A stretch of 64,000 bases of DNA from Lytechinus pictus. Its lineage: Eukaryota. Shown in pieces: positions 2 through 24,479 of this stretch. The notes beneath the pieces were generated by a model, which was not told the DNA's origin, ran no database searches, and worked only from the letters and a program-made list of their open reading frames with translations. Position 1 is the first letter of the stretch. Every line of letters begins with the position of its first letter. Where the stretch lies: positions 22,942,001 through 23,006,000 of the forward strand of contig NC_087250.1 of assembly GCF_037042905.1 (NCBI RefSeq), given 5' to 3'. The position numbers and the translations under genes are program-made.

Positions 2-1552
2 TGTAAGAAACACGGACTACCCGTATGTGATCGTTGCGCTATCAAAGAACATTGCCAAAAACCATGTGAGCTAGATGATATCGAGGATGTCATCTTTGAG
101 AGGAGAAAAAAACTAGATGAGAAACGGCCAAAAATACAGGAACTTCAGAAACAAATGAAAGCCCTAGATTTGAAAATAAAGACAGCTTTAACTTCTGGCG
201 ATACCAATCTACAGACAGTAAACAACAACATTCAAGCATCGTATCACAACAAGATCAAATCTGTTGAGGAAAAGGAGGACAGAATGATCAGAGTGATTAA
301 CGAGGAGGCAGATGAGGAAATAAAGCGAGTAAATGAAAAGAGAGAAAAACGGATCAAGAATTGCACCACCGAGAGAGAAAAGGAGCAAAATATCATTAAA
401 AACAAAGAAGCAAAACTTCTATCAGATGCAAAGAAAATCACCAAAATCATTTCTAAGAAGATCAAAGATCTAACTATTAAGAGTCAGCATGTCATAAACA
501 CTATCAAGAATATTGAATCCAACATCACACGTATAAACCAACATGATGAAACATTGGTGAATGAAGCTTCTCAAGTACTTGCATCTATTAATGAAAATTT
601 AAGTTTGAATGTTCATCAAGATGTTAGTGACTGCCTTGACCTAATAGAGAGTGAAGTTGAGAGAGTGAAGTTTGTAGAGGGGGAAGTATGTGGAGAATAC
701 TATGGTAAAATTGATGGGTATATCGGTAAATGGGAACTTGCAAAGTCAATCCACATTCCATCGGTCGTTGATGAGCCTTGTGTGTTTGGTTTAGTCAGTG
801 AGGATGAGATATGTGTGCAAGACAGAGATAACAATGACATGTATGTTACAAACATCAGCACTCAACACACAGAGAAAGTCATTGATGGAGGTGTGTTGAT
901 TACATCATGTGCGCCCATAGACAGTAACGTAATAGTATGTGGTAAGATGAGAGGTTATTGCACAGGTGACAGGTTGGAAGGACACATTACTCTCTATGAC
1001 AGACAATGGAAGGTGATTAGAGATATCACCATACCAAGGAATGGAATCAGTATGAGTGTGTATGTTGATGTCGACAGGGATGGGATGATCATCGCTGCTC
1101 AGTGGAATCAGTCTAATATCTACATCATCAATCCTGCTGATGATAAGATAGTAAACACTATTACGATGCAGGGTAAGGTGGTGTGGGGTGAGATACATGC
1201 CTTGTCATCAGGTGATATCGTTGTGAAGACAAGCTATCATAATGAATACACTGTCATCTCACGATCAGGAGAAGAGAAGGCTTTCATACACTGTGATGAG
1301 TGGGACTGGTCAGAGTGTCGCGTTGACAAACTGACAGACACACTCTACATCGTGTACTGGGATGAACCGCGTATGACCTACGCAGTTGATCAGGTGTCAC
1401 GTGATGGTATCATCCAGGCAAGGAGGATCGTGGAATATGTGGAATCAGATCGCACTCGCTTCATTAGCCCTTGTCTTGTTACTCCTTCTGGTAACCTTGT
1501 AGTATGTGATGGAGACAAATTTCTTCTTTACAAGAAGACATTCGTCTTGTAA
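2..1552 (+). CDS. TRIM-like B-box/coiled-coil/NHL beta-propeller protein, copy 1 (5' end cut by window)
   Basis: Frame open from base 2 (CKKHGLPVCDRCAIKEHCQKPC = end of B-box2), in frame with ORF 155..1552; K/E-rich coiled coil, then propeller-like repeats (VYVDVDRDGMII, CLVTPSGNLVVCD); N-terminal half nearly identical to copy 3. Confidence 0.88.
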   Translation, partial: CKKHGLPVCDRCAIKEHCQKPCELDDIEDVIFERRKKLDEKRPKIQELQKQMKALDLKIKTALTSGDTNLQTVNNNIQASYHNKIKSVEEKEDRMIRVINEEADEEIKRVNEKREKRIKNCTTEREKEQNIIKNKEAKLLSDAKKITKIISKKIKDLTIKSQHVINTIKNIESNITRINQHDETLVNEASQVLASINENLSLNVHQDVSDCLDLIESEVERVKFVEGEVCGEYYGKIDGYIGKWELAKSIHIPSVVDEPCVFGLVSEDEICVQDRDNNDMYVTNISTQHTEKVIDGGVLITSCAPIDSNVIVCGKMRGYCTGDRLEGHITLYDRQWKVIRDITIPRNGISMSVYVDVDRDGMIIAAQWNQSNIYIINPADDKIVNTITMQGKVVWGEIHALSSGDIVVKTSYHNEYTVISRSGEEKAFIHCDEWDWSECRVDKLTDTLYIVYWDEPRMTYAVDQVSRDGIIQARRIVEYVESDRTRFISPCLVTPSGNLVVCDGDKFLLYKKTFVL

Positions 1553-1819
1553 ATCATCAAGAATCTCACTCAGCATAGTCTCCAGGGGCAGACCCTGATT
1601 GAACTTTGATTAACAAGTGTGTCTCTACACAAAGACTAGCATATACGAAACTTTGATGGCCTTGAGGTGGCTGCACATTCAGACCATAATCTCGAGTGAA
1701 GGGTTTGCACGGCAGACTAATCTAAATGAGTGATAATGTTTTTTTAAGAACATTTCAGAGCAATGTTTTGCTACATTTCCATTTGTGTTTAACTTCAATC
1801 TGCCACCCCTTATACCCAT

Positions 1820-2303
1820 TGGGGCAGTTTCATAATTTGTTATAGTCACAATCCGTAGTTAAAAGCTACTGAAATAATTCAATTTGATTGGATCATAGTA
1901 ACCTTCGAAACAGAAATTTTTATTATAACAAGTCTTTATGAAACATAACTCGTTATACATGTAGTAACAATCAATAGTTAAAAGCTACTGAAATAATTCA
2001 ATTTGATTGGATCATAGTAACCTTCAGATAGAAATTGTTATTATAACAAGTCTTTATGTAACATAACTCGTTATACATGTAGTAACAATCAATAGTTAAA
2101 AGCTACTGAAATAATTCAATTTGATTGGATCATAGTAACCTTCAGATAGAAATTTTTATTATAACAAGTCTTTATGAAACATAACTCGTTATACATGTAG
2201 TAACAATCAATAGTTAAAAGCTACTGAAATAATTCAATTTGATTGGATCATAGTAACGTTCAGATAGAAATTGTTATTATAACAAGTCTTTATGTAACAG
2301 GAC
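1820..2303. repeat. ~120-bp minisatellite (about 4 copies) derived from a small MITE; 2 copies at 9152-9400, 1 at 21110-21240
   Basis: Unit tagttaaaagctactgaaataattcaatttgattggatcatagtaacc...ttatg(a/t)aac repeats; outer ends ggggcagtttcataa / ttatgtaacaggacc are inverted. Confidence 0.85.
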
Positions 2304-3689
2304 CATGGAGACATTCATGTTTGATACAATGGTCATGCCTATGTGTTATTAAATTCAATGTAATGTATTTGAACTACGATTATTTTTAAGTTAACAATTC
2401 AATGCTTGTGTGTTCATACATGTATTATGCTGGTAAAAGTCTAGACATTCTTTATTCAAGAATGATATCATTGAAATTTGAATCTTCTTTCTTTCAAGTC
2501 CCTTCTCTATGTTTTGACAATAAAATCATTCATATTTTGACCAATTAAACTTTGACAGAATATGATTTTAAAAATCATAAAGAGTTCGAATTTTCATTTT
2601 AACCGAATTTAAATGATATTATCATCCCACATTCCTCCGAAAGTTTACAATGCCCTAACCAAACAGATAACTCATTTCAAGAATGAAAAATTCATACTAT
2701 TAAATTGAAATATATTTAGCTTTGTTTTGTATATAAATCTGTCAGTAGGTTCGTCATTGTATATATATATATCACATTTAAATATTTTTTTTGCACGCAT
2801 ACATGCATATCCTCGTCATTGCTTACCTTAAAATAATGTTTCAATAATTTATCCTGTTTATTTTCCCAAGCTTTTTGTTTGATCATATCTTTCACCTCTG
2901 TATTAAAGAAGCTTTCCAATCTTATCTTTATAAAACCAATTCATATATAGTATATCCAATTTTGTAAAAAGTGCAAATTTCTTTTATTATATAAAGTGCA
3001 GTATACATGTATAATGATATGATATTTAAAGATCATCTATTTGGGTTAATACATGTACGATAAAAGTTTAGTAGAAATTAGAATTTGAGTCTTACAAATG
3101 ATGTTATATTCTTTTGTAACATGTTTTCATTAAATTTAGTCTAGGAATTTTAGACCTTGATGTAAGATAATAAAATGATATGGTTGTATTTGATCTTTAC
3201 ACCTTCAGGAGGATTGACAGAATTGTAACATATGAATCAGAGCAAACATTGTTTAGTGTAAATCAAGAGGAAAGAAATAGATATCTTTATACTGGAATAA
3301 AATGGTGATAGCCAAGAAAGACAAGAAAGATTCAATCATGTATATAAAATATGCGAAAGATTGGTCAATCAACTACCAGTTGTAAACACATTACTGATCT
3401 AAATCTATCAATCATTTTGAATAAATGTTGTAAATGATCAAAATCGTTCATTATGGTTGCATGTGAAATTTGTAGGAATTTCAATCAAAAGATCATTATG
3501 GTGATAGGGAGAGACAGTTTTTAAATTCTCTACAAGGAATATTAATCTGATCTATAATCAAGTAATTTTGTCAGCCTAAGTGCTATTCAAATGAGAAACC
3601 TAAACATATAAAATATATAATTGTTTCATCTGCAGTTCTTTTGTTGACTCTACAATCTATGAAGGGCTGGTTAAAAATGACAGAATGAT

Positions 3690-4260
3690 GCTGAGAGATA
3701 GAAGAGAAGATGAAGAGAGAGGGAGAGAGAAAGAAAGAGGGGAAAAGAGAGAGAAAGAGTTAGTGATAAATGGATAGAGAAAGACAGAAGGAAATAGAGT
3801 GAGAGAATAAGGATGATGAGTGTCTCCGCACAAAGACAAGCACACTTACAAAACTTGCTGTTTCAATTCCTGAGCGAGAGGGCCTTCAGTACACAAGGTA
3901 TGAGAAGGCTGCACACACAAAGAGAGAGAGAGAGAGAGTTTGTGATAAATGGATAGAGAAAGACGGGAGGAAGAAAGAGAGTGGGAGAATAAGGATAATG
4001 TTGAGACAAAAAAAGACAGGATGAAGAGAAAAAGAAAGACAGAGAAAGAGATAGAGAAAGGTAGTGATAAAATGGATGGAGAAAGACAGGAGGAAGAAAG
4101 AGTGGGAGAATAAGGATGATGTTGAGAGAAAAAAAAAATAAGATGAAGAGAGATGGAGAGGGAAAGAGAAAGAGTAAAACTCAAGAAGGGGAATTAAGAC
4201 ATAGAAAAAACATAAAGATAAGGGGATAAAGAAGTTAGAGAAAAAGAAGAGAAGAAATTG
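3690..4260. repeat. GA-rich compound low-complexity tract (paralogs 10790-11370 and 22625-22720)
   Basis: Purine-rich repeats with recurring gtgataaatggatagagaaagacaggaggaag motif and (GA)n. Confidence 0.9.
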
Positions 4261-4861
4261 AACTGATTGTACACTAAAAATTACTATCAACGCCTTATTC
4301 ACTTGACTGAATGTTTGTTTACTTTCAAGCATCACTAAGCCAACATTGATTTTATATGTAGACAAGACATGCCAGTGGACGTTCCTCTTTATTAATATAA
4401 CATAATAATTATTTTTCAAGGCTGTTCATTTTTTTCATATCGGATCATATCAGTTCATGCCATGGTAATTTCATTTACCTGTGACTATTACAACTTTTGA
4501 TCTTTGCTATCTAATATCATAGATAATACAAACATTGTAAAACAGAGATAAGTAATTCAAGAGGGGACCATATATATACATAAGGGTTGGTCATACATTA
4601 TGAAATAGCTATCTTGTTGATTTATTACTATCATATAGTGAATCTAGACCAGGGGCCCAACTAAGACACCTTGATGTGGGGGGGGGGGGGTCAGATCAAT
4701 GACTTAAATCTCACATCACTCTCTACTGAGTGACATAATTAATCTAAGCAAAACATTACTCTTTCTTTACTTAATCTTTATTTCATCATCATAATTCCTC
4801 TTCCTCTTTTCTTTTCCTGAATTTTTCCCTACCTAAAATCACAAGAATATACAGATAGAAG

Positions 4862-5095
4862 TTGGATGAAATTTGCAAAACAAGTCTTAAGAATTCCATC
4901 AGTATATGCTCAATTGAAACAGCAATGACTTGGCAACCAAATGGAAGAAGGAACATTGGCTGTCCCAAGCACACCTGGCGGACTTTCCTGAAAGACTTAG
5001 AGTTGGCCTATAACCTTGATAACAATCTACTTAAATTTAGTGGTTGCAAAACTCAAAAGTGACGACAGCTTCCTGCCTAATGCACTACACAGGAA
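4862..5095 (+). mobile_element. 3' fragment of RTE-type LINE (paralog 12828-13665, split by a MITE)
   Basis: Translation AMTWQPNGRRNIGCPKHTWR matches the W.P.G.R..GRPK.TWR C-terminal motif of RTE ORF2. Confidence 0.6.
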
Positions 5096-6038
5096 GAAGC
5101 CTACCCCGGTCTAAAGTATCACTATTCATAACTGTGGTATAACTCATGTCCTGATATGAATGATATTTCCTCATCAATATTACATCACATATTAATATTG
5201 CTCTGATCAGATAACGACTGCTGTAGATGCTGTTAAAATCTTCAGATACAGCCATATTCTGGTACTGACAAATTGTGCTCTAACTCTGCAGTTTTTCATT
5301 TGAATTCTAGATTGCTTTACAACTCAGATTTCAAATGATTGTGAACAGGTAAATTTAACTTCTATAACTTTAAATAATCGATCTTAAAGAAATAATCTGT
5401 AATTATAAGGGGATGGGGGAAATGATTACGATATGCTGAAACTATGGACCTATGAAGAGATGGACATTCATCGATTATATTATGAATTCACCATTAGGTG
5501 ACTGTTATTATCATCGGAATAACATTCTCTTCATATTAATGTCCTTTGGTTCTATGATCGTCACTATGAGAAGGGCCGGAAGCAATTCGTGATTGGACAT
5601 TTATAGTCAACAGATTGTATGCGCAGTAGATAACAAATCCCTGAAATCATGGAAAATTGATGTGCAGTTCTTGTTTACCTTAATTTGGCAATCTTAGTTC
5701 CATGTGTTTTATGTGGGGAATTGTCTGCATATTTTGATATATTGGCAATTTTGTGATTGTTTAAGACTTTTCCCAAGTTTCTCCACTATAATATTCCAGA
5801 TATACATGTACATGTACGTGGCACATAACTTGTATAGATCTTATATCTCTCAATGTCATTGAGGTCCTTATGTGTATGCGGAAGTGAGCGGATTAAATGA
5901 TATCATATTCTATATCACAGAAATCATCTGCTTCCCAAGTTTGCTGCTCCAAATATGAAGCATGTTGATTAAAAGGCATATGGCGTAACTGGGAATCACC
6001 CAACAAAAATCAAGACCAGGGAAACCGTTCCTTCCTAA

Positions 6039-6433
6039 AGCTAAATGACAATAGTTGCAGTAAAATACTGATTTCGTGAGAAAGTCTGTAAAACCAAGGT
6101 TAAGTATTACTATATCATCGTGGATCTAGATCTGGTATAGTTACACAAACTGAACTTTGTGAAATCATAATATCTAAGCTAAAAAACGATCACACTGAAG
6201 ATCGCCAACACAGATAGGCACACGTGGGACAGTGTATTATTATTGCTGGAATAAAGACCCGACGGAAGTGACAGAATCCGCGCTTATTTTGCTTATTTCT
6301 CAGCAATTACACAATTTCTTCCAGAATCCTTTGGCACATATTTTTTATTCATACAAACATACACTTTAGTGATCATTATATTAAATTCTGTAAAAAGTCA
6401 TTTTGAGATCGTCCCCACAACTGGAATTTACCT
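6039..6433. mobile_element. Kolobok-like MITE (TTAA site), unit-1 specific
   Basis: ctaa|agctaaatgac ... ggaatttacct|ttaa; absent at the homologous site of unit 2. Confidence 0.6.
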
Positions 6434-6437
6434 TTAA

Positions 6438-6842
6438 AGGCGACCGCACACCTTACGATTGGTCTGCGACCCGATTTCAGAATAAATTGTAGTAGAATTT
6501 GATGCTAACATTGAGACTTGGAATATCCTACTGTGTAATGTTCTAAATCATCGTAAGAATACCTATATTACTATACTATCATCCTTCTTAGAATAAAAGC
6601 GAATTTAGTATCTAGTCGTAATGACGTCATAGCAGTCGTACGATTGGCTACGATTTGAAACAAATTTGGCCTTTACTCCGAAATAAAGGCTTACAATATA
6701 TCAAAATGGTTATATTAGCATTCTTTTAATTAACTTAAACATCAAATAAAATGATATGTTCCATTCACATTTTCAGAAAATGAGCAAAATGCGATTTGTT
6801 CCAAAATCGGATCGCGAACAGTCGTAAGGTGTGCGGTAGCCT
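6438..6842. mobile_element. PIF/Harbinger-like MITE, unit-1 specific
   Basis: TIR aggc(g/t)accgcacaccttacga, TAA duplication. Confidence 0.8.
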
Positions 6843-7232
6843 TAAAGTGATCAGAAACGCCTTGATGATTATGTTATTGCTATTGCTACAACACCTGTAT
6901 GTTCTCATTAAGATGCACAAATCCAGGTGACGGTTACTGTCATTGGATCAAAGAAATGCTCGCGTTAATCGTCCATCTCTTAGGTCCATGCATGATGAAA
7001 CCCAATGTACATTTGCTGAAGAAGATTTTTTTTTATTATTGAGTTTAGCTTTTGCATTAATGTTGACGTATATGAGAAGGTCCATGGGTAAGGTCTACAT
7101 AACTTTTTTTCCACCATATAGCTGATTTTAATCCCATTTATTTTTCAAGCTTCTTCCTGCTTCTTATCCATCTCACATTCCTTACAGGTTTCCTCTATCA
7201 TCCAGAGCTTAACAATCTTCAGACATTACATC

Positions 7233-8882
7233 ATGGCGGCAAGATTTCCTAAAGGAAACAAAGTTCAGCTCCGACCTCGAAAAGGTCATGACATGACATG
7301 GTCATGTGATGAGCATGGTGAACCAATCAAATTTTACTGCTTAGAACACGAATTGCCAGTTTGTCATCCATGCGCGACCAAAGATCACCAGAAACCATGC
7401 AAGCTGGAAAACATCCAGGATATCATCTTTCAGAGGAGGGAGAATTTGTACGACAAAAAACCAAAGATAGAAGAAACGAAGAAACAACTGAAAACTCTGG
7501 TCTCTAAAATAGAAACTGTTGCAACGTCTGCAAGTAGGAGCATCGATGCAGTCAAGGACCAAGTGAAGATGACATTCGAAGACAAGTTAAAGAGTGTTAG
7601 GGATAAGAAAGTGAGAAAGCATCGGGTGATTCATGAGTGGGCAGATGAGAGAATTAGAAAGATTTCTGAGGAAATGGACAAAAAGATCAAGGATTGCAAC
7701 ACTGAGATAGAAAAGGAAGAACAAAACATCAAAGACAAAGAAGCTAAATTGTTAAAAGATACAACGACAATCAGTGAGGTAGTTACTAAGAAGACAAACA
7801 ATCTCTCTTGTAAAAATCAGCATGCAATAAATACTTTGATGAACATTGAATCAACCATCAAACGTATAAACCAACATGATGAAACATTGGTGAATGAAGC
7901 TCCTCAAATACTTGCATCTATTGATGAAAATCTAAGTTTGAATGTTCATCAAAATGTGAGCGACTGTCTTGACCGAATAGAGAATGAAGTTGAGAGAGTG
8001 AAGTTTGTAGAGGGGGAAGTAGGTGAAAAATGCTATGGTAGAATTGATGGGTGTTTAGGTAAATGGGAACTTGTCAAGTCAATCCACATTACATCGGTTG
8101 TTCATAAACCGTTGGTGCGTGGTTTGATCAGTGAGGATGAGATCTGTGTGCAAGATGTACCTAACTATAACATGTACCTTACAAACATCAACACTCAACA
8201 CACAGAGAAAGTCATTGATGGAGGTGAGCTGATTACATTATGTGCGCTCATAGACAGTAACGTAATAGTATGTGGTAAGGTGAGACGTGGTTGCACGGGT
8301 TACAGGTTGAATGGATGCATCACTCTCTATGATAGACAATGGAAGGTGATTAGAGACATCAGCATACCAAGGAATGGATACGATAGTCATGTGTATGTTG
8401 ATGTTGACAGGGATGGGATGATCATTGCTGGTCAGTACTATCAGTCTAATATCTACATCATCAATCCTGCTGATGATAAGATAGTAAACACTATTAAGAT
8501 GCAGGTTAAGAAGGTGATGGGTGGGATACAAGCCTTGTCATCGGGTGATATCGTTGTGAGGACAGGTTATCATGAATACACTGTCATCTCACGATCAGGA
8601 GAAGAGAAGGCTGTCATACACTGTGATGAGTGGTGCGAATCACAGTGTCGCGTTGACAAACTGACAGACACACTCTACATCATGTACTGGGATAGAGCGC
8701 GTAATACCTACGCAGTTGATCAGGTGTCACGTGATGGTATCATCCAGGCAAGGAGGATTGTGGAATATGTGGAATCAGATCGCACTCACTTCATCAGCCC
8801 TTGTCTTGTTACTCCTTCTGGCAACCTCGTAGGATGTGATGGAGAGAAACTTCATCTTTACAAGAAGACATTCGTCTTGTAA
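7233..8882 (+). CDS. TRIM-like B-box/coiled-coil/NHL beta-propeller protein, copy 2 (549 aa, single coding exon, no RING)
   Basis: Intact ORF; B-box2 CDEH-x7-CLEH-x4-CHPC-x4-H; coiled coil; propeller; ATG in acatcATGGCG context, 45 nt after acceptor cttacag (7187). Confidence 0.9.
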   Translation: MAARFPKGNKVQLRPRKGHDMTWSCDEHGEPIKFYCLEHELPVCHPCATKDHQKPCKLENIQDIIFQRRENLYDKKPKIEETKKQLKTLVSKIETVATSASRSIDAVKDQVKMTFEDKLKSVRDKKVRKHRVIHEWADERIRKISEEMDKKIKDCNTEIEKEEQNIKDKEAKLLKDTTTISEVVTKKTNNLSCKNQHAINTLMNIESTIKRINQHDETLVNEAPQILASIDENLSLNVHQNVSDCLDRIENEVERVKFVEGEVGEKCYGRIDGCLGKWELVKSIHITSVVHKPLVRGLISEDEICVQDVPNYNMYLTNINTQHTEKVIDGGELITLCALIDSNVIVCGKVRRGCTGYRLNGCITLYDRQWKVIRDISIPRNGYDSHVYVDVDRDGMIIAGQYYQSNIYIINPADDKIVNTIKMQVKKVMGGIQALSSGDIVVRTGYHEYTVISRSGEEKAVIHCDEWCESQCRVDKLTDTLYIMYWDRARNTYAVDQVSRDGIIQARRIVEYVESDRTHFISPCLVTPSGNLVGCDGEKLHLYKKTFVL

Positions 8883-11783
8883 ATCATCAAGAATCTCACT
8901 CAGCATAGTCTCCAGGGGCAGACCCTGATTGAAACTTTGATTAACAAGTGTGTCTCCACACAAAGACTAGCATATACAAAACTTTGATGGCCTTGAGGTG
9001 GCTGCACATTCAGACCATAATCTCGAGTGAAGGGTTTGCACGGCAGACTAATCTAAATGAGTGATAATGTGTTTTTAAAGAGCATTTCAGAGCAATCTTT
9101 AGCTACATTTCCATTTGTATTCAACTTCAATCTGCCACCCCTTATACCCATTGGGGCAGTTTCATAACTTGTTATAGTCACAATCCGTAGTTAAAAGCTA
9201 CTGATATAATTCAATTTGAATGGATCATAGTAACCTTCGGAACAGAAATTTTTTTTATAACAAGTCTTTATGAAACATAACTCGTTATACATGTAGTAAC
9301 AATCAATAGCTACAAAATACTGAAATAATTCAATTTGATTGGATCATAGTAACCTTCAGATAGAAATTGTTATTATAACAAGTCTTTATGTAACAGGACC
9401 ATGGAGACATTCATGTTTGATACAATGGTCATGCCTATGTGTTATTAAATTCAATGTAATGTATTTGAACGACGATTATTTTTAAGTTAACAATTCAATG
9501 CTTGTGTGTTCATACATGTATTATGCTGGTAAAAGTCTAGACATTCTTTATTCAAGAATGATATCATTGAAATTTGAATCTTCTTTCTTTCAAGTCCCTT
9601 CTCTATGTTTTTACAATAAAATCATTCATATTTTGACCAATTAAACTTTGACAGAATATGATTTTAAAAATCATAAAGAGTTCGAATTTTCATTTTAACC
9701 GAATTTAAATGATATTATCATCCCACATTCCTCCGAAAGTTTACAATGCCCTAACCAAACAGATTACTAATTTCAAGAATTAAAAATTCATACTATTAAA
9801 TTGAAATATATTTAGCTTTGTTTTGTATATAAATCTGTCAGTAGGTTTGTCATTGTATATATATATATCACATTTAAATATTTTTTTTGCACGCATACAT
9901 GCATATCCTCGTCATTGCTTACCTTAAAATAATGTTTCAATAATTTATCCTGTTTATTTTCCCAAGCTTTTTGTTTGATCATATCTTTCACCTCTGTATT
10001 AAAGAAGCTTTCCAATCTTATCTTTATTAAACCAATTCATATATAGTATATCCAATTTTTGTAAAAAGTGCAAATTTCTTTTATAATATAAAGTGCAGTA
10101 TACATGTATAATGATATGATATTTAAAGATCATCTATTTGGGTTAATACATGTACGATAAAAGTTTATACTTAGAAAGTAGAATTTGAGTCTTACAAATG
10201 ATGTTATATTCTTTTGTAACATGTTTTCATTAAATTTAGTATGGGAATTGTAGTCCTTGATGTAAGATAGTAAAATGATATGGTTGTATTTGATCTTTAC
10301 ACCTTCAGGAGGATTGACAGAATTATAACATATGAATCAGAGCAAACATTGTTTGGTGTAAATCAAGAGGAAAGAAATAGATATCTTTATGCTGGAATAA
10401 AATGGTGATAGCCAAGAAAGACAAGAAAGATTCAATCATGAATATAAAATATGCGAAAGATTGGTCAATCAACTACCAGTTGTAAACACATTACTGATCT
10501 AAATCTATCAATCATTTTGAATAAATGTTGTAAATGATCAAAATCATTCATTATGGTTGCATGTGAAATTTGTAGGAATTTCAATCAAAAGATCATTATG
10601 GTGATAGGGAGAGACAGTTTTTAAATTCTCTACAAGGAATATTAATCTGATGTATAATCAAGTAATTTTGTCAGCCTAAATGCTATTCAAATGAGAAACC
10701 TAAACATATAAATTATATAATTGTTTCATCTGCAGTTCTTTTGTTGACTCTACAATCTATGAAGGGCTGGTTAAAAATGACAGAATGATGCTGAGAGATA
10801 GAAGAGAAGATGAAGAGAGAGGGAGAGAGAAAAAAAAAGAGGGGAAAAGAGAGAGAAAGAGTTAGTGATAAATGGATAGAGAAAGACAGGAGGAAGAAAG
10901 AGAGCACTTGGGAGAATAAGGATGATGAGTGTCTCCACACAAAGACTAGCACATACAAAACTTGCTGTTTCAATTCCTGAGCGAGAGGGCCTTCAGTACA
11001 CAAGGTATGAGAAGGCTGCATACACAAAGAGAGAGAGAGAGAGAGAGAGAGTTTGTGATAAATGGATAGAGAAAGACAGGAGGAAGAAAGAGAGTGGGAG
11101 AATAAGGATAATGTTGAGACGAAAAAAGACAAGATGAAGAGAAAAAGAAAGACAGAGAAAGAGATAGAGAAAGGTAGTGATAAATGGATAGAGAAAGACA
11201 GGAGGAAGAAAGAGTGGGAGAATAAGGATGATGTTGAGAGACAAAAAAAAATAAGATGAAGAGAGATGGAGAGGGAAAGAGAAAGAGTAAAACACGAGAA
11301 GGGGAATTAAGACATAGAAAAAACACAAAGATAAGGGGATAAAGAAGTTAGAGAAAAAGAAGAGAAGAAATTGAACTGATTGTACACTAAAAATTACTAT
11401 CAACGCCTTATTCACTTGACTGAATGTTTGTTTACTTTCAAGCATCACTAAGCCAACATTGATTCTATATGTAGACAAGACATGCCAGTGGGCGTTCCTC
11501 TTTATTAATATAACATAATAATTATTTTTCAAGGCTGTTCATTTTTTTTCATATCGGATCATATCAGTTCATGCCATGGTAATTTCATTTACCTGTGACT
11601 ATTACAACTTTTGATCTTTCATATCTAATATCATAGATAATACAAACATTGTAAAACAAAGATAAGTAATTCAAGAGGGGACCATATATATATACATAAG
11701 GGTTAGTCATACATTATGAAATAGCTATAATCTTGTTGATTTATTACTATCATATAGTGAATCTAGACCAGGGGCCCAACTAA

Positions 11784-12634
11784 GGCCGTGTTTATGCATC
11801 CACTTTTCAGGCCAGAATCAGCATTTCCAAATGTGGTTAGTCCAAAACACGGTTGCGTCCATGCTTACTTTCATTTAAACGCTGTTTCAAAACGCCGATC
11901 GTAAACTCACAAAAAGGTGCGTTTGTAAACGTCGTTTGACCAGAATCAGGCTTTCTGGGGAAGTATAAACAGAACCACGATCGTAAACGTGTTTAAATAA
12001 CGTCATTTGGTGCATGCTTCCGGTGAGATGAAAATCCGCGGGCAAATACAGTCGCATTGCTCCATGGTCGCATGTTACCTCCACGGAATTGCCTCTCATC
12101 TCCCTTGTTACATTTGCATGTGTGATAATTGATATAAGTACTATCACTAGTATTACTCTTCCAATTTGTCATCACAATGAATGTTGAGGGATTTACAAAA
12201 AAAAAACCTGGAATATGAGTTATAATGAGGAGACATCGCCAGATGCCCATAAACAAATAGATGTTTTATTATTTTATTATGTATACTTTAATTTAATTCT
12301 TTATTTTTTCTCACTATTATCCTCACCATGGTGGAAATTATATGGTTATATCAAGAAGCTCCATGCAATGACTAAAATATCGGAAATTGTTCGATGTTTA
12401 AAAAACAGTCAACGTACCTTCCCCATAACAACTCTTTCGAAAAAGGGCGTGCCCAATTTGACCTCGCTTTCCTGCTCAACGAAAATTACGATGCGAAGCC
12501 AGCTGGAGTTAGTGATTTCGCCTCTGAAAAGTGAAGCATAAACAGCACTCCCAGAACCACGTTTACGATCGGCGTTTTGAATCGACGTTTGAAAACGCTG
12601 ATTCTGTCCTCGCAATGGAAGCATAAACACACCC
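11784..12634. mobile_element. PIF/Harbinger-like MITE, unit-2 specific
   Basis: TIR ggccgtgtttatgcatcca / tggaagcataaacacaccc, TAA TSD; empty site at 4662-4664. Confidence 0.9.
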
Positions 12635-13000
12635 TAAGATACCTTGATGTGGGGGGTGGGGCAGATCAATGACTTAAATCTCACATCACTCTCTACTGAG
12701 TGACATAACCTAAGCAAATCATTACTCTTTCTTTACTTAATCTTTATTTCATCTTCTTAATTCCTCTTCCTCCTTTCTTTTCCTGAAATTTTCCCTACCT
12801 AAAATCACAAGAATATACAGATAGAAGTTGGATGAAATTTGCAAAACATGTCTTAAGAATGCCATCAGTATATGCTCAATTGAAACAGCAATGACTTGGC
12901 AACCAAATGGAAGAAGGAACATTGGCTGTCCCAAGCACACCTGGCGGACTTTCCTGAAATACTTAGAGTTGGCCTATAACCTTGATAACAATCTACTTAA

Positions 13001-13596
13001 AGGGGAATCCAACCCAAATAAAAACTTGCTTTTATAAGAAAAAGAAAAATCAGACAAGTTGATAGGTGAAAGTTTGATCAATATTGGACAAATAACAAAA
13101 AAGTTATGAATTTTTAAAAGTTGTAAATATTGGTAATCACTGTACCCATGGAGACTTCAAATTGGCCGCATATGGGATGTCATAGTGATGTAAGGCAAGG
13201 ACTACTCTTCCATGTACTCCAATACATATTATGGCTAAAATGTCATTTTTCCCAAAAGTTTTAATTTCAAATTATATTTTTCTTTCATGAGGACATAAAA
13301 CAATATACTAGCTGGATTATATTTAGATTACTGCCCCAGGGGAGTGGGTACCTAGGAGAAAACCACAAATCCCTGATAATAAATTACATGGCCTATGGGA
13401 AAGTTGTCCTTGCCCCTTGTCATAATTTACTCACTCAGTTGCCAATTTGAAATCTACATACTATTAGTGATCTCAATTTTAAAGCAGCTAGAACTTTCTT
13501 ATTGCTTGTCCGATTTCTTTCAAACTTTCGCCATTCTATTTAATTTATTTTTCTCCTTCCCAACACAACATTTTATGGCCAAGGCTGGATTCCCCT
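13001..13596. mobile_element. Kolobok-like MITE
   Basis: ttaa|aggggaatcca ... tggattcccct|ttaa; empty TTAA at 5031-5034; second copy at 18176. Confidence 0.88.
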
Positions 13597-13998
13597 TTAA
13601 ATTTAGTGGTTGCAAAACTCAAAAGTGACGACAGCTTCCTGCCTAATGCACTACACAGGAAGAAGCCTACCCCGGTCTAAAGTATCACTATTCATAACAG
13701 TGGTATAACTCATGTCCTGATATGATCGATATTTCCTCATCAATATTACATTACATATTAATATTGATCTGATCAGATAACAACTGCTGTAGATGCTGTT
13801 AAAATCTTCAGATACAGCCATATTCTGGTACTGACAAATTGTGCTCTAACTCTGCAGTTTTTCATTTGAATTCCAGATTGCTTTACAACTCAGATTTCAA
13901 ATGATTGTGAACAGGTAATTTAACTTCTATAACTTTAAATAATTGATCTTAATAGTAATTTGTAATTATAAGGGGATGGGGGAAATTATTAGGATATA

Positions 13999-15097
13999 CA
14001 GTGCAAGCCAAACAGTGCCTTTCAGAAAAAAGGTAATCTAAATCTAGAGGGCTGATATTCCGATCATATTTAATTTTGTGTAATTATCTTCATGGATATA
14101 AATGAGAAACTCATCAGCTTTCCATTGATACCATATTTGTACCATTTATGCCACGGATGACCGAATCAATCGCTGTTGAAGACAACAGGTCCAGAGACCA
14201 CTTTTTCCAAGTTTTGGTAAAGTGGGTAAAATGTGCACTTGATAAAATAACGTTTTCCAAAGTAATTTTTGGAATGAAGTGTTACTTGAGGTATTTTTCT
14301 GAAATGATGAGTGAAAAATTGATGTCTTATCATGGACCTGGTCTGATTGGCCCACACCTTCAATATGTCCTCCTCTCCTTTGAAAACAAAGCCAGAAGCG
14401 TGGAAGAATATCTTGGACAGCTCGTCTCACCAGTGGCAATGCCGGATCATTGTGCAAAACATCCACATCATATCGAATTCGGCCCTGCAAGTCATCAAAA
14501 TCTTGGGGAAGAGTTGCAAAAACCTTATTTTTAATTGTCCCTTAAGGAAATAATCACAGGGCGTGAGGTCAGGCACTTTTGGTGGCCGTTCAATGCCATA
14601 TGGTTGAGGGCAACAACTCAATGTCCAAAGAGTTCTCTGTGTCTATCATAAATGATGCTGGAACAATGGGCAGGAGCGCCGTCCTGAATCCACCAAAGAT
14701 GCCTGTACACTCCTCACAACTGTCTCTCAAAATGTTGGTCCAATTGTGGTACGATCTCCTCTATAATGGTGTGCAAGTACATTCACTTATTAATGCTCCT
14801 TTGGAAGAAAAAGGGTCCAATCAAAAGATTTTTGCCAGCTCAGGCATCAATGAAAGTATTTACATCAGCATCTGCCTTTTCATCAAGTTTTCAAAAACTT
14901 GGAAAAAGTGGTCTCTGCACCTTTTGTCTTCAACCTCAACTAATTTGGTCATGCGTAGCGCAAATGGCACAAATAGGGTATCAATGGAAAGCTGATGAGT
15001 TTCTCTTTCATAATCATGCACAACAATGTCACAAAATTAAATATGCGTTGAATATAAGCCCTTTGGATTTGGATTACCTTTTTTCTGAAACGCACTG
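13999..15097 (-). mobile_element. Degenerate Tc1/mariner element (maT/DD37D-like motifs)
   Basis: TA TSD, TIR cagtgc(c/g)tttcagaaaaaaggtaatc; minus-strand remnants WWIQDGAPAH and PDLTPCDYFL with stops/frameshifts; empty site near 5432. Confidence 0.88.
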
Positions 15098-15953
15098 TAT
15101 ACTGAAACCATAGACCTATGAAGAGATGGACATTCATCGATATTATGAATTCACCAACAAGTGACTGTTATTGTCATCTGAATAACATTCTCTTCATATT
15201 AGTCTACTTTGGTTCTATGATCGTCATCATGAGAAGAACCAGAAGCAATTCATGATTTGACATTTATATTCAACAGATTGTATGTGCAGTAGATAATAAA
15301 TCCCTTAAATCATTGGAAACTGATGTGCAGTTCTTGTTTACCTTTGGTAATCTTTGTTCCATTTGTTTATTTGGGGAAAAGTCAGAATATTTTTATATTG
15401 AGGCAATTTTGTGATTAATTTGTTTACCATTTGAATTTGAAATTCCATTTTCCCAAGTTTCTCCATAACATTCCAGATATATATGGCACAACAAGGCATA
15501 AATTGTGTATCTTTCAAGGTTATTGAGGTCCTTATGTGTAAGCCAAAGTGAGCAGATCGAATGATATCATATATGCAGGGTGCAACATAAGCGCTTGCCC
15601 GATTGCCAGGGGCAAGTAAAAGTTAGAGTCAGGCAAGTGATTTGAAGCAAAGACAAAAACTAATTGCCCGAATCGGGCAAGCAAAATTCTCATATAGAAA
15701 TTATATTTTAGAAAGATTCCCCATATTTCACCATCAGAAATATGGAGAAAAAAAAAAGAGACAAATAAAAGCCATATCATTAATTTCTTCTTTCAAAAAG
15801 TTTATAAGTCATGATTCTAATTGCAAAATTTGTGCCATTTTCTGCAATAAACACACAACTCAGACACGTACACACACACACAGAATCAATGGCAGTCTAG
15901 CATACCTAGCTAGCTAGCGCCTCGTCATGCACGTAGCCCATGCATGTAGTTAA

Positions 15954-16533
15954 AGGGATGGTCCAGGCTGAAAATATTTATATCTTAATACATAGAGTAG
16001 AATTCACTAAGCAAAATGCCGAAAATTTCATCAAAATCGGATAACAAATAATAAAGTTATTGAAGTTTAAAGTTTAGCAATATTTCGTGAAAGCAGTCGT
16101 CATGAATATTCATTATGTGGGTTGATGATGTCACATCTCCACTTTCCGTTTTCTTATGTTATTACATAAAATCCTTATTTTTTCATTATTTCATACTTGT
16201 GTGATAATATGTCTCTCTAATAATGAAATAAGTTGTGGCAATAAATATCTAAAGCACTATTCAGTTGTCAATCCAATTTTTCTAGTTCTTGGAGGAAAAA
16301 ATTTGAATAAATCTAATTTCATATAATAAAATACAAAAGAACAAGTGGAGATGTGACATCATCAGTCCACCTAATGAATATTCATTACGACTGTTTTCAC
16401 AAAATATTGCTAAACTTTGAAATTCAATAACTTTGTTATTTGTTATCCGATTTTGATGAAATTTTCGGCGTTTTGCTCAGTGAATTCTACTCTATTTATT
16501 AAGCAATATATACTTTCAGCCCAGACCATTCCT
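15954..16533. mobile_element. Kolobok-like MITE nested in the previous element
   Basis: ttaa|agggatggtccaggctgaaa ... tttcagcccagaccattcct|ttaa; largely palindromic. Confidence 0.85.
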
Positions 16534-16879
16534 TTAAGTTTCTACGGAGTACGGTGCTGCACGAACAAAGTTTGCTATGGAAGAAATCTCCCAAAGAACT
16601 GTCAAAATTCACATTTCTTGCAGATGAAAACTCTTGTAATGTCTATATTTCCTAAAAATTGGGGTAGCTCTGTCATTTGTAAGCAGTAAAAGGAGAAATT
16701 TTCACTTCTGTTATGCTTCAAAAAGATCAGGTTTTGAATGATCGTCTGTATCACACACACTGAAATAGATTGTTTGACAGTCCCACATTTGTGTTAATGT
16801 TGATAAACGTGGTTTCTTTCGTAACTATTTTTTTGCCAAGGAAATTGATAAATTTTTTTCTTTACTTATGACTGGATAG

Positions 16880-17740
16880 TTTGAGCTTTCTTCCTCTCTG
16901 TTCTCTTTCTTTCTGCCTATCTTTCTTTCTTTTCTTTTCAATCTTTATTTCTTTAAATGTCCTTGCTTCTTTCGTTCGTTTTTTCTGTTACTATAGGCTC
17001 TATACATGTAGCTGTCTTTCTTTTTGTCATTCTATTTTTCTTTCTTCCTTCCATCCATCCATTCTTTACCTTTTCTTCCTTACTTTCTTCATCCCTTTCA
17101 TTCTTTCTTTATTATTTCTTTCCTTCATTCCTTTCTATTTGTCTTTCGTTCTCTTTCTCCTTCCTTTCTTTCCTTCTGATTTTCTTTATTTTTGTCTTTC
17201 GTTCTTTTGATCTTTCTTTTTCTTCCTTATTTTTTCTTTCTGCCTTCCTTCATCTCTTTCCTTCATTTCTTTCTGTCTTTCATTCTAACTTTCTTTTCTT
17301 TCTTTCTTTTTTCCCTTCCTTCCATCTACCCTTTTACCTTTTCTTTCTTCCTTCTTTCCTTTTCTTTCTTTCCCTTTCTCTTCCTTCCATCCATCCTTTT
17401 CTTTTTCTCTTTTCTTTCTTCCTTTTACCTTTTTTTCTTTCTTTTTCTTTCTTTATTCATTCCTTTCTTTCTCTTCCCCTCAGTTTTTTCTCTATTTTTC
17501 TTTCTTTCTTTTTTCTTTCCCTTCTTTCTTCCTTCCTTTCTTTCCATCTTTCTCTTCCCCGCAGCCATTCTCTCTCTCTATCTTTCTTTCTTAATTTCTT
17601 TTTTTTTCTTTCTTCCTTCCTTTATTTCTTCCTCCTTTCTGTCTTTCTTCTTATTTTTTTTCTTTCATTCTGTCCCCTCTCTTAATTTCTTTTTTTTGCA
17701 TCTGGTTATTTTCAGTGATTTCTCCTTTTTTTATTGTGTC
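16880..17740. repeat. CT-rich low-complexity tract
   Basis: ~860 bp of almost pure pyrimidines. Confidence 0.95.
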
Positions 17741-18175
17741 CTAGTCCCCTCCAAAATATATGGAAAATATATGAGATTAGGAAATTAATTAAAGAGCACA
17801 TTGACCATATATTTTGTCATGATGTACAAGATAAAAATCATTTTAAAAAATACAGCTACAAGGTACATCAGTAGTCATGTTGAAAAATATATCAATAAAG
17901 CTGTCAATGGTATGGTATGTAAAACCGTAAGCATATAACTTGTTTTGAAGCAATAAAACTTTGTTTTGAAGGATTTTTTCGGGCAAGTAAAATCTATATT
18001 CGGGCAAGTATTTTCCAACTATTTGAAAATTTACGTGCCCGACTGGGCAAGTGCTTCAAAAAAGTTATGTAGCACCCTGATATATGTATATCAAAAAAAT
18101 CACTGCTCCAGGCATATGGTGAAAATGGGACTCAGCCAACAAAAATCAAGACCAGGGAAACCGTTCCTTCTTTAA

Positions 18176-18770
18176 AGGGGAATCCAACCCAAATAAAAAC
18201 TTGCTTTTATAAGGAAAAGAAAAATCATACAAGTTGATAGGTGAAATTTTGAACAATATTGGACAAACAACAAGAAAGTTATGAATTTTTAAAAGTTGTA
18301 AATATTGGTAATCACTATATCCATGGAGACTTCAACTTGGCCACATATGGGATGTCATAGTGATGTAAGGCAAGGACTACTCTTCCATGTACTCCAATAC
18401 ATATTATGGCTAAAATTTCATTTTTCCCAAAAGTTTTATTTCAAATTATATTTTTCTTTCATGGGGACATAAAACAATGTACTACCTGGGCTATATTTAG
18501 ATTACTGCCACAGGGAAATGGGTACTTAGGAAAAAACCACAAATCCCTGATAATAAAGTACATGGCCTATGGTAAAGTTGTCCTTGCCCCTTGTCATAAT
18601 TTACTTACTCAGTTGCCAATTTGAAATCTACATAATATTAGTCATCTCAATTTTAAAGCAGCTATAACTTTCTTATTGCTTGTCCGATTTATTTCAAATT
18701 TTCACCATCCTGTTTAGTTTATTTTTCTCCTTCCCAAAACAACATTTTATGGCCAAGGCTGGATTCCCCT
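18176..18770. mobile_element. Kolobok-like MITE, same family as 13001-13596
   Basis: ttaa|aggggaatcca ... tggattcccct|ttaa, colinear with the first copy. Confidence 0.88.
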
Positions 18771-19158
18771 TTAAGTGATCAGAAACGCCTTTGTGATTAT
18801 GTTATTGCTATTGTCACAACACCTCATTAAGATGCACATAACCAGGTGACAGTGACTATCATTGGATCAAAGAAATACTCGCATTAATCGTCCATATCTT
18901 AGGTCCATGCATGATGAAACCCAATGTACATTTGCTGAAGAAGATTTTTTTTTTATTATTGAGTTTAGCTTTTGCATTAATGTTGACATATGTGAGAAGG
19001 TCCATGGGTAAGGTCTACATAACTTTTTTTTCACCATATACATGTAGCTGATTTTAATCCCATTTATTTTTCAAGCTTCTTCCTGCTTCTTATCCATCTC
19101 AAATTCCTTACAGGTTTCCTCTATCATCCAGAGCTTAACAATCTTCAGATATCACATT

Positions 19159-20814
19159 ATGGCGGCAAGATTTCCTGAAGGAAACCAAGTTCAGCTCCGA
19201 CCACGAAAAGGTCATGACATGACATGGTCATGTGACAAGCATGGTGAGCCAATCGCATTTTACTGTAAGAAACACGGACTACCCGTATGTGATCGTTGCG
19301 CTATCAAAGAACATTGCCAAAAACCATGTGAGCTAGATGATATCGAGGATGTCATCTTTGAGAGGAGAAAAAAACTAGATGAGAAACGGCCAAAAATACA
19401 GGAACTTCAGAAACAAATGAAAGCCCTAGATTTGAAAATAAAGACAGCTTTAACTTTTGGAGATACTTATCTACAGACCATAAACAACAACATTCAAGCA
19501 TCGTATCACAACAAGATCAAATCTGTTGAGGAAAAGGAGGACAGAATGATTAGGGTGATTAACGAGGAGGCAGATGAGGAAATAAGACTGGTAAATGAGA
19601 AGAGAGAAAAACGGATCAAGGATTGCAACATTGAGAAAGAAAAGGAGCAAAAACTCATCAAAGATAAAGAAACAAAACTTCTATCAGATGCAAAAACAAT
19701 CAGCGAAATTGTTTCTAAGAAGATCAAAGATCTAACTATTAAGAGTCAGCATGTCATAAACACTATTAAGAATATTGAATCCACCATCAAACGTATAAAC
19801 CAACATGATGAAACATTGGTGAATGAAGCTTCTCAAGTACTTGCATCTATTAATGAAAATTTAAGTTTGAATGTTCATCAAGATGTTAGTGACTGCCTTG
19901 ACCTAATAGAGAGTGAAGTTGAGAGAGTGAAGTTTGTAGAGGGGGAAGTATGTGGAGAATACTATGGTAAAATTGATGGGTATATCGGTAAATGGGAACT
20001 TGCAAAGTCAATCCACATTCCATCGGTCGTTGATGAGCCTTGTGTGTTTGGTTTAGTCAGTGAGGATGAGATATGTGTGCAAGACGTAATTAACAATAAC
20101 ATGTATGTTACAAACATCAGCACTCAACACACAGAGAAAGTCATTGATGGTGTGTGGATTACATCATGTGCGCCCATAGACAGTAACAGAATAGTATGTG
20201 GTAAGAGGAGAGTTGATTGGTGGGGTGTCAGGTTGGATGGATTCATCACTCTCTATGACAGACAATGGAAGGTGATTAGAGACATCAGCATACCAAGGAA
20301 TGGAAACGGTATGATTGTGTATGTTGATGTTGACAGGGATGGGATGATCCTCGCTGCTCAGTACTATCAGTCTAATATCTACGTCATCAATCCTGCTGAT
20401 GATAAGATAGTAAACACTATTAAGATGCAGGGTAAGAAGGTGTGGGGTGAGATACAAGCCTTGTCAACAGGTGATATCATTGTGACGACAGGTCGTAATA
20501 AATACACTGTCATCTCACGATCGGGAGAAGAGAAGGCTGTCATACACTGTGGTGAGTGGGACTCACCACAGTGTCGCGTTGACAAACTGACAGACACACT
20601 CTACATCGCGTATTGGGATAGAGATCGTAATACCTACGCAGTTGATCAGGTGTCACGTGATGGTATCATCCAGGCAAGGAGGATCGTGGAATATGTGGAA
20701 TCAGATCGCACTCGCTTCATTAGCCCTTGTCTTGTTACTCCTTCTGGTAACCTTGTACATGTAGTATGTGATGGAGACAAATTTCTTCTTTACAAGAAGA
20801 CAATCCTCTTGTAA
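19159..20814 (+). CDS. TRIM-like B-box/coiled-coil/NHL beta-propeller protein, copy 3 (551 aa)
   Basis: Intact ORF, same architecture; B-box2 CDKH..CKKH..CDRC..H; same upstream acceptor at 19113. Confidence 0.9.
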   Translation: MAARFPEGNQVQLRPRKGHDMTWSCDKHGEPIAFYCKKHGLPVCDRCAIKEHCQKPCELDDIEDVIFERRKKLDEKRPKIQELQKQMKALDLKIKTALTFGDTYLQTINNNIQASYHNKIKSVEEKEDRMIRVINEEADEEIRLVNEKREKRIKDCNIEKEKEQKLIKDKETKLLSDAKTISEIVSKKIKDLTIKSQHVINTIKNIESTIKRINQHDETLVNEASQVLASINENLSLNVHQDVSDCLDLIESEVERVKFVEGEVCGEYYGKIDGYIGKWELAKSIHIPSVVDEPCVFGLVSEDEICVQDVINNNMYVTNISTQHTEKVIDGVWITSCAPIDSNRIVCGKRRVDWWGVRLDGFITLYDRQWKVIRDISIPRNGNGMIVYVDVDRDGMILAAQYYQSNIYVINPADDKIVNTIKMQGKKVWGEIQALSTGDIIVTTGRNKYTVISRSGEEKAVIHCGEWDSPQCRVDKLTDTLYIAYWDRDRNTYAVDQVSRDGIIQARRIVEYVESDRTRFISPCLVTPSGNLVHVVCDGDKFLLYKKTILL

Positions 20815-23767: not shown

Positions 23768-23887
23768 CTGCTCTGGTCTTGAAGGATAGCTGAAAGTCAC
23801 CTTGTCAAATTCTACGTTGGCATAGAGACTGTGGTATGGTATACACTTGCCCCCGGTCAAAGGAATACTGGGTTCCATTTTGATATA
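23768..23887 (-). CDS. ABCB8: ABCB8 exon 10 (linker and start of NBD)
   Basis: ttttcag|YIKMEPSIPLTGGKCIPYHSLYANVEFDKVTFSYPSRPEQ|gtaagt; 120 nt, phase 0/0. Confidence 0.93.
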
Positions 23888-23937
23888 CTGAAAACACAAA
23901 GAGAAAAAAATCAACGGCCGTCCTGAAATACAATTAA

Positions 23938-24479
23938 AGGTAACCAAAACACAAGAAGCAATCTTATTGGAAAGAGTAAAATGAGACGAACAATTTTTTA
24001 AAAAAAATTCATCAAAATCGGTTATGAAATAAGCAAGTTATGGATGTTTGAAAAGTCTGATTGTACTTTCTATGGGGATCCTCAAATCGGCAAACGTGCT
24101 TCAAAATGGCTGATTTTGTGGACAACTCTACATTTGTTTTGTACACAAATTTTCAGATTTTCCTCATTATCTTTCAAATTGCATCTTGCCTCCTTCAGAG
24201 CACAACATATGTCATGGTCAGGAGGAGATAATGTGAAATATGTAAAATAAAGGAGAAAATCTGAAAATGTGTGTACAAAACAAATGGAGAGTTGTCCACA
24301 GAATCAGCAATTTTGAAGCACGTTTGCCAATTTGAGGATCCCCATAGAAAGAACAAGACTTTTTAAACATCCATAACTTGCTTATTTCATAACTGATTTT
24401 GATGACTTAAAAAAAAAATTGTTCCTCTCATTTTACTCTTTCCAATGAGATTGCTTCTCTTCTTGGGTTTTGGTTTCCT
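23938..24479. mobile_element. Palindromic Kolobok-like MITE
   Basis: ttaa|aggtaaccaaaac ... ttttggtttcct|ttaa; arms inverted over most of their length. Confidence 0.85.

Follow-up and report, generated by a model that had tools for sequence, protein, structure and literature searches.

Introduction

Adaptive immunity is not known from sea urchins, and the diversified receptors described in them are TLRs, NLRs, SRCRs and Transformer proteins. In vertebrates, TRIM5alpha and the fish finTRIM, btr and trim35 proteins combine a B-box and a coiled coil with tandem lineage-specific expansion, recombination and positively selected C-terminal loops (PMC3137616, in part). The TRIM-NHL proteins (Brat, Mei-P26, NHL-2, TRIM2/3, TRIM32 and TRIM71/Lin41) have one or more B-boxes, a coiled coil and a six-bladed propeller, and are a few conserved regulators with an electropositive, RNA-binding top (PMC4015489, in part). 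The antiviral protein TRIM56 has an NHL-like domain of six blades that is divergent and shares limited homology with classical NHL repeats (PMC13236048, in part). Here we analyze a 64,000-nucleotide stretch of the Lytechinus pictus genome (assembly GCF_037042905.1, contig NC_087250.1, positions 22,942,001 to 23,006,000 of the forward strand), referred to as the window. It includes three long unbroken open reading frames (ORFs) on the + strand, genes A, B and C, each encoding a B-box, a coiled coil and a 273-residue C-terminal domain. The top face of this domain, a predicted beta-propeller, is under strong diversifying selection, and the scaffold that carries it is under purifying selection.

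The sea urchin family resembles TRIM5alpha and the finTRIMs in the features named above, whereas those proteins have a RING ligase and a B30.2/PRY-SPRY domain and the family has an NHL-like propeller, no RING that we could find and a single coding exon. Having neither RING nor B30.2, it is not a class IV TRIM. It differs from the TRIM-NHL proteins in consisting of dozens of fast-evolving copies with a mostly acidic top; its propeller is 12-17% identical to theirs, has no Pfam NHL repeat and is not accompanied by a filamin domain in the model. TRIM56, unlike this family, is a single gene with a RING ligase, and the likeness to it is drawn from its published description.

Diversifying selection on the propeller top face

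A first-pass annotation of the window had described near-identical framework alternating with seven short hypervariable segments in the three C-terminal domains. All 21 peptides that it quoted were recovered exactly (in gene C: DVINNN at 20083, RRVDWWGVRLDGF at 20206, GNGMI at 20302, QYY at 20359, TTGRNK at 20485, WDSPQ at 20557 and DRDRN at 20617), and the six codon triplets given to illustrate changes at positions 1 and 2 with position 3 kept are all present in the codon alignment. The unit of variation, on the other hand, is the single residue or short run, not the whole segment.

Selection was analyzed with our own codon site models (F3x4, branch lengths refitted) in clade I, the group to which the window genes belong. 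This set includes 29 propellers and 272 codons; L027, which has a frameshift in the propeller, and columns with more than 20% gaps (31 of 303) were excluded. Model M0 gave an omega (dN/dS) of 1.62. Twice the log-likelihood difference (2dL) was 610 for M2a versus M1a, with 14.8% of the sites at omega 7.0, and 646 and 596 for M8 versus M7 and M8a respectively, with 15-16% of the sites near omega 7. The 33 sites selected with a posterior above 0.95 are, in gene C numbering, residues 293, 295, 297, 310, 311, 333, 350, 352, 354, 362, 383-386, 402, 403, 427, 429, 431, 443, 446, 468-471, 486, 488, 489, 493 and 518-521. Twenty of them lie within the seven segments noted earlier, and 13 outside (293-297, 333, 427-431, 486, 493 and 518-521).

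Faces were assigned following the Brat convention, in which the b-c and d-a loops form the top (PMC4015489, in part), with the first strand of blade 6 placed by hand. Twenty-nine of the selected sites are among the 122 top-face codons, four are mid-strand, and none is among the 96 bottom-face codons (Fisher p 1.3e-8). The B-box and coiled coil of 19 clade I copies, analyzed in the same way, gave omega 0.39 and 2dL 0, with no selected class. When the top loops were set from structure alone their omega was 3.8, with a synonymous rate of 1.94 versus 1.85 for the bottom face, and a tree-free estimate of dN/dS was 2.06 for the top loops (confidence interval, CI, 1.59-2.71) versus 0.55 for the bottom face.

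The same distribution is seen in the window genes. The A, B and C propellers differ in 67 columns, of which 47 belong to the top face, 10 to the bottom face and 9 to mid-strand positions; where all three residues are different (14 columns), 12 belong to the top face. Between A and C the top loops show pN 0.177 and pS 0.034, and the bottom face plus mid-strand positions pN 0.035 and pS 0.029. Across the 29 paralogs the selected codons differ at positions 1, 2 and 3 in 48, 46 and 27% of pairs, compared with 9, 8 and 8% elsewhere. The strings formed by the selected sites are distinct in all 29, and identity is 27% at these sites versus 83% at the others.

Of the genomic loci matched by the propeller of gene C, 70 were analyzed, and a quick tree of 69 was used only to define clades. 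Clade I is located on contig 6 at 22.9 and 27.0-27.95 Mb and on contigs 9 and 16, clade II on contig 6 at 1.2-1.8 Mb and clade III on contig 13 at 6.3-6.7 Mb; clades II and III are each about 37% identical to clade I and have, as judged by eye, a second B-box-like motif. Analyzed on their own, they gave M8 versus M8a values of about 241 (clade II, 11 sequences; the M8 likelihood is a lower bound, as are those of the S2 fit and of several simulation fits) and about 197 (clade III, 13 sequences). Their alignable selected sites coincide with those of clade I in 11 of 17 cases for clade II (p 1e-7) and 11 of 16 for clade III (p 3e-8). Among 22 Strongylocentrotus purpuratus proteins, 25 of the 33 most variable positions are clade I selected sites. 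Sites picked in one group were also tested tree-free in another: those from clades II and III gave 2.57 (1.57-4.76) in clade I, those picked by S. purpuratus entropy gave a dN/dS of 1.78 (1.18-2.57), and clade I sites gave 2.22 (1.30-4.14) in clade III.

Domain architecture and predicted structure

The B-box was identified by Pfam (PF00643) with 26.1 bits in gene B and 23.9 bits in gene C, the cut-off being 24.1, and has seven invariant Cys/His residues (residues 25-52) across 95 homologs. The ORFs start 22 residues ahead of it. No RING was found by Pfam in B, C or the part of A inside the window, although RNA does not exclude an upstream RING exon. It was likewise absent from 55 of 56 scanned relatives; the exception, P0211, is a distant match (E 1.1e-4) that has a RING, a B-box and a propeller. 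The RING is also the part missing from Brat. Brat is listed as lacking part of the RING, B-box and coiled-coil (RBCC) motif in PMC3503706 (Table 1), which does not mention sea urchins.

The C-terminal domain had no Pfam match to SPRY in the window proteins and is predicted to fold as a propeller. The NHL repeat (PF01436) was not matched in the three window proteins (E up to 1) or in the 56 relatives (E up to 0.001), and the 24 matches to this profile in the genome are all at other loci. The AlphaFold2 model of gene C consists of the B-box, helices 62-256 and a six-bladed propeller, and the propeller modelled alone reached a pLDDT (predicted local distance difference test) of 94 and a pTM (predicted TM-score) of 0.91. 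In an exhaustive structure comparison against 48,161 chains, ranks 1 to 6 were all TRIM-NHL domains: Mei-P26 (Z 23.8), Brat (22.9), TRIM2 (21.9), NHL-2 (21.4), Lin41 (21.2) and TRIM71 (21.0), with a root-mean-square deviation of 3.1-3.4 over 247-258 aligned residues; unrelated six-bladed propellers follow just below (Z at most 20.7). The neighbours of the propeller in a language model are NHL clusters (score 0.93). A seven-bladed WD40 fold took the top Foldseek E-values and was rejected, as the best TM-scores were those of NHL domains (0.68-0.70 by query); because these two Foldseek rankings disagreed, we relied on the exhaustive aligner. A sequence search of solved structures was weak (best E 0.71; TRIM5 B-box/coiled coil 0.76; P0090, described below, best 0.51).

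The B-box/coiled-coil region modelled as a homodimer scored 0.65 compared with 0.00 for the best control, with a pLDDT of 86 and at least 97% of the contacts shared between runs. The contacts are antiparallel, for example 112-175 and 134-153. In a benchmark of this score, 17 of 29 eukaryote homodimers and none of 30 monomers reached the mark. The coiled coil is thus predicted to form an antiparallel homodimer, a prediction that may reflect memory of solved TRIM dimers.

Family members and exchange of domains

The propeller of gene C has at least 126 matches in the genome, fragments counted. Named homologs are 'uncharacterized' or 'TRIM5-like/TRIM15-like' proteins of L. pictus, L. variegatus and S. 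purpuratus, with more distant ones in Diadema; all named relatives among the matches are from sea urchins, many matches are unnamed, and the named homolog models are 545-560 amino acids long with the B-box as only domain. Fifty-three Lytechinus sequences of the clade I type separate from 22 S. purpuratus sequences (support 0.97), and the expansions therefore appear largely independent. We found no description of the family in the open-access literature. Neither PMC12373286 nor PMC2858798 contains any passage on NHL or the B-box, and PMC8382680 has a table with one bivalve-expanded B-box orthogroup and does not mention NHL. The nearest remark is that 140 S. purpuratus genes are annotated as TRIM (PMC13043383, in part). 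In the ESM Atlas, the clusters closest to the propeller are NHL clusters without a name that have 51-592 members; several were recorded mostly from molluscs. These may represent a parallel expansion, in which case the strategy may be widespread in marine invertebrates.

Part-by-part comparison of the sequences reveals mosaics of scaffold and propeller. In gene B a divergent B-box/coiled coil (dS 0.66-0.76 to A and C) accompanies a closely related propeller (dS 0.11-0.14), in locus L021 a B-box of the A/C type is combined with a coiled coil of the B type, and the near-identical N-termini of L006 and L013 are followed by different propellers. Other heads occur on the common cassette in predicted gene models: Death-TIR in P0090, TIR in P0088 and Death in P0101. 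Each of the three models could be placed on the genomic sequence with its frames open and its exons joined at phase-1 GT-AG junctions. In Pfam the heads score below the cut-off, with E 0.005 for TIR and 0.02 for Death. The head that combines Death and TIR is similar to MyD88 clusters (0.92) and is 49% identical (E 4e-12) to an S. purpuratus Death/TIR protein in which the Death domain is clear and which has no propeller.

One three-exon gene encoding Death, TIR, coiled coil and propeller (G000:C6:27203303-27212387; loci L077, L076 and L019) has open frames and phase-1 GT-AG junctions. Its TIR includes a Glu, in MTIEMA, that presumably occupies the catalytic position of NADase TIRs, judged by eye from the pattern of these domains. 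A Death-headed copy (G000:C6:27143188-27145614; loci L082 and L024) has a predicted ZU5-containing tail that ends in a Death-like region. There are two ZU5-tail models (P0237 and P0027), one in each Lytechinus species, that of L. variegatus being on a B-box-headed copy.

Such proteins recall the NLR and TLR-type families, which likewise have a signalling head, an oligomerising middle and a positively selected sensor surface, with heads exchanged by exon shuffling. The sea urchin family differs from them in having no NACHT/NB-ARC or leucine-rich repeats, in having a TRIM coiled coil as the middle part and in that most copies are B-box-headed.

Expression

Three contig sets, X16, X17 and X1 (88-121 million letters, compared with a genome of 812 Mb), are probably transcriptomes. 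Their contigs cover the coding exons and mostly not the unique flanks, and most of them derive from paralogs. Coelomocyte data for S. purpuratus were taken from rows of the supplement of PMC13043383, in which 12 homologs were looked up and counts were available for 11. According to these rows, 10 of the 12 homologs are single-cell cluster markers in coelomocytes: eight mark clusters identified as phagocytes by elimination, and two mark colourless spherule cells. Three of the 11 reach hundreds of reads. The S. purpuratus homologs are transcribed in immune cells, which is not evidence of specificity or induction. In the same rows, the counts of LOC115927415 and LOC115927174 spread more than 10-fold among replicates of one condition (e.g. 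22-486), which is what presence/absence or allele-specific mapping would give.

Candidate function and alternative explanations

We consider it probable that this tandemly expanded family, with a B-box, a coiled coil and an NHL-like propeller and without a RING, serves as a germline-encoded set of cytosolic sensors directed at pathogen or parasite molecules that change fast. B-box-driven clustering on a repetitive target is known for TRIM5alpha. In the proposed mechanism the conserved scaffold, predicted as an antiparallel dimer, would present two propellers per dimer; each paralog would bind a different foreign ligand through its top face; and the B-boxes would cluster the dimers on a repetitive target. 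The usually acidic character of this face and its many W, Y, F and R residues would make a protein, or some other surface that is not RNA, the more likely ligand. Lacking a RING, the proteins would act by sequestration, through partners that they recruit or by way of the signalling paralogs with Death/TIR heads.

A more far-reaching version, which we offer as tentative, is an undescribed class of intracellular immune receptors, encoded in the germline and with the propeller as paratope. In it one exon would supply the coiled coil and a propeller with about 33 top-face residues comparable to antibody complementarity-determining regions, gene conversion would act among dozens of copies, and exon shuffling would join this exon to B-box, Death, TIR, Death-TIR and ZU5-Death modules, the B-box sensors pairing with signalling paralogs through the coiled coil. 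If a sensor repertoire is confirmed, it would add a cytosolic component on a new scaffold to the immune receptors of sea urchins, from a family that Pfam sees only as 'B-box, uncharacterized', and would mean that the strategy of TRIM5 evolved again with a propeller replacing PRY-SPRY. Loop swaps and ligand screens can start from the 33 mapped positions, which may also help to identify the intracellular pathogens that press on urchins.

The first-pass annotation had proposed a TRIM5-like sensor family with an NHL propeller as variable binding surface. Much of what this entails agrees with our results: the paralogs are numerous, sites with dN/dS above 1 are still found after the recombination controls described below, they concentrate on one face, and family members are transcribed. 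The NHL propeller stands by fold and not by the Pfam sequence profile. The likeness to TRIM5 holds for a B-box/coiled coil followed by a positively selected C-terminal domain and fails for the RING, so that the ligase output of TRIM5 itself cannot apply here. As a whole, the earlier interpretation is partly supported.

Several observations weigh against the sensor explanation or narrow its basis. S1, a model in which rates vary from site to site but positive selection is absent, fits 36 units better than M8; adding selection to S1 gave a further 2dL of 125, with omega 4.2. The synonymous rate at the 33 sites is raised about 2.4-fold, for which reason an omega of 7 is probably too high and a value of 4-5 is to be preferred. 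Roughly half of the codons in the propeller are near-neutral, the faces were assigned from strand order and not from coordinates or solvent exposure, and clade I sites tested tree-free in clade II gave 1.17 (CI 0.70-2.15), which is not significant. Six of the 30 clade I loci are broken by a frameshift or stop. The window genes have no signalling or ligase domain, and the Death/TIR heads are found in L. pictus gene models only and therefore look like recent fusions. In three raw RNA runs of unstated tissue (about 8 million records each) gene C was almost without reads, as was gene B in the one run compared with it. In S. purpuratus, 8 of the 11 homologs have mostly fewer than 30 reads in coelomocytes, and the samples in the part of PMC13043383 used are unchallenged or UVB-treated coelomocytes with no non-immune tissue for comparison.

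It is unlikely that the propellers are sequence-specific RNA readers, like Brat, Mei-P26 and TRIM71, diversified to follow transposon or viral RNAs. The best structural matches are indeed RNA-binding TRIM-NHL domains, the selected face is the RNA face of Brat (PMC4015489, in part), and TRIM56 binds Zika RNA through its NHL-like domain (PMC13236048, in part). The enrichment of arginine and of aromatic residues at the selected sites (W 8.3 versus 1.2% elsewhere, Y 9.3 versus 3.9%, F 3.5 versus 0.6%) also fits RNA binding. On the other hand, when charged residues of the top face are counted, D+E outnumber K+R in 26 of 29 paralogs (K+R minus D+E from -18 to +5; no electrostatic map underlies these figures), whereas the tops of RNA-binding TRIM-NHL domains are electropositive (PMC4015489, in part), and 33 sites with 3-11 residues each would exceed the needs of a four-letter ligand.

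An internal or reproductive arms race, in which the targets would be proteins of selfish elements or the function would be self/non-self or gamete recognition instead of microbial defence, seems quite unlikely. The pattern of selection does not name the antagonist, expression was low or absent in the RNA runs tested, and sea urchin gamete-recognition proteins evolve fast. However, the N-terminus has no hydrophobic leader and B-box proteins are intracellular, which makes roles at the gamete surface unlikely; the homologs are expressed in coelomocytes; the Death/TIR heads point to immune or death signalling; and the variation extends across dozens of paralogs and is not that of alleles of one locus.

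Substrate adaptors that hand foreign proteins over to a ligase, either a TRIM with a RING or one of another kind, as in the expanded F-box families, with immune recognition and with proteolysis in place of signalling as output, would account for a conserved dimerising scaffold with a variable substrate end. The combination of RING, B-box and propeller in the distant P0211 and the many annotated TRIM genes of S. purpuratus (PMC13043383, in part) agree with this idea, which we nevertheless regard as improbable: none of the three window proteins and only that one of the scanned relatives has a RING.

The last alternative is a neutral pattern, in which relaxed surface loops together with gene conversion, or a targeted mutator, imitate selection. 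In addition to the better fit of S1, the raised synonymous rate and the broken loci, it could invoke the trees of four quarters of the domain, which disagree (Robinson-Foulds 42-48 of 52), so that recombination is likely heavy or short segments resolve poorly. Null simulations on four discordant trees (three runs), however, gave 2dL values of 2-40 and omega of at most 2.6, compared with the 610 observed, and each quarter on its own tree gave 95-172. The 22 intact copies alone (rerun without L007, L012, L014, L018, L022, L023 and L029) gave a 2dL of 568 and recovered 32 of the 33 sites, and models that allow multi-base changes gave 327-476. Bottom-face loops, also surface loops, stay at omega 0.55-0.74. 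A mutator resembling a diversity-generating retroelement or a deaminase was rejected, as the four bases are equally variable at the selected sites (2.04, 2.07, 2.19 and 2.00 variants per A, C, G and T) and CpG transitions are 8 of 206 changes. With these results neutrality is nearly excluded.

Window genes and local array

The features of the window are listed in Table 1. The pyrimidine tract and AG upstream of gene B are likely the end of an intron in its 5' untranslated region (UTR). An X17 contig matches 7184-7309 and continues with sequence unlike the window, the break being at this predicted acceptor. The non-coding flanks common to A, B and C are 94.5-96.5% identical, by which the three genes are recognized as recent tandem copies. 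Including 50 kb upstream of the window, the local array has seven copies.

Table 1. Location of coding sequences, domains and duplicated DNA in the window
Feature	Positions	Strand	Remarks
Gene A coding sequence	2..1552	+	5' end 104 bases before window; whole ORF 551 aa; propeller from about 725
Gene B coding sequence	7233..8882	+	549 aa
Gene C coding sequence	19159..20814	+	551 aa; reference for numbering
Pyrimidine tract and AG acceptor	7165..7188	+	45 bases before gene B start codon; equal motif precedes gene C
Gene C B-box type 2 zinc finger, residues 23-53	19225..19317	+	Pfam PF00643, E 4.8e-5
Gene C coiled-coil region, helices 62-256	19342..19926	+	predicted antiparallel dimer; purifying selection
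Gene C six-bladed NHL-like beta-propeller, residues 277-551	19987..20811	+	predicted structure
33 positively selected family codons placed on gene C	20035..20721	+	site models, clade I
Tandem duplication unit around gene B	6840..11784	+	about 350 bases upstream of acceptor, coding exon and about 2.9 kb of 3' flank

In one copy of the array (L072, G000:C6:22926335-22928813) about 830 inserted bases split the propeller. The 3' flanks of A, B and C (1843-2299, 9163-9395 and 21121-21234) contain 3.9, about 2 and 1 copies, respectively, of a 118-base repeat, which may promote unequal crossing-over. Short repeats directly behind the stop codons (8860-9050 and 20820-21020) are very abundant in the RNA and contig sets and are likely small transposon pieces in the 3' UTR. 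The right boundary of the array is marked by a frame on the - strand (23705-24037) that includes FDKVTFSYPSRPEQV; it has no Pfam match and resembles, by its motif, an exon of an ABCB-type transporter. Further to the right, a 225-codon open frame on the - strand (39571-40248) has a weak match to DUF5725 (E 0.003, below the cut-off) and may, by its likeness, be a BEN-like domain of a mobile element.

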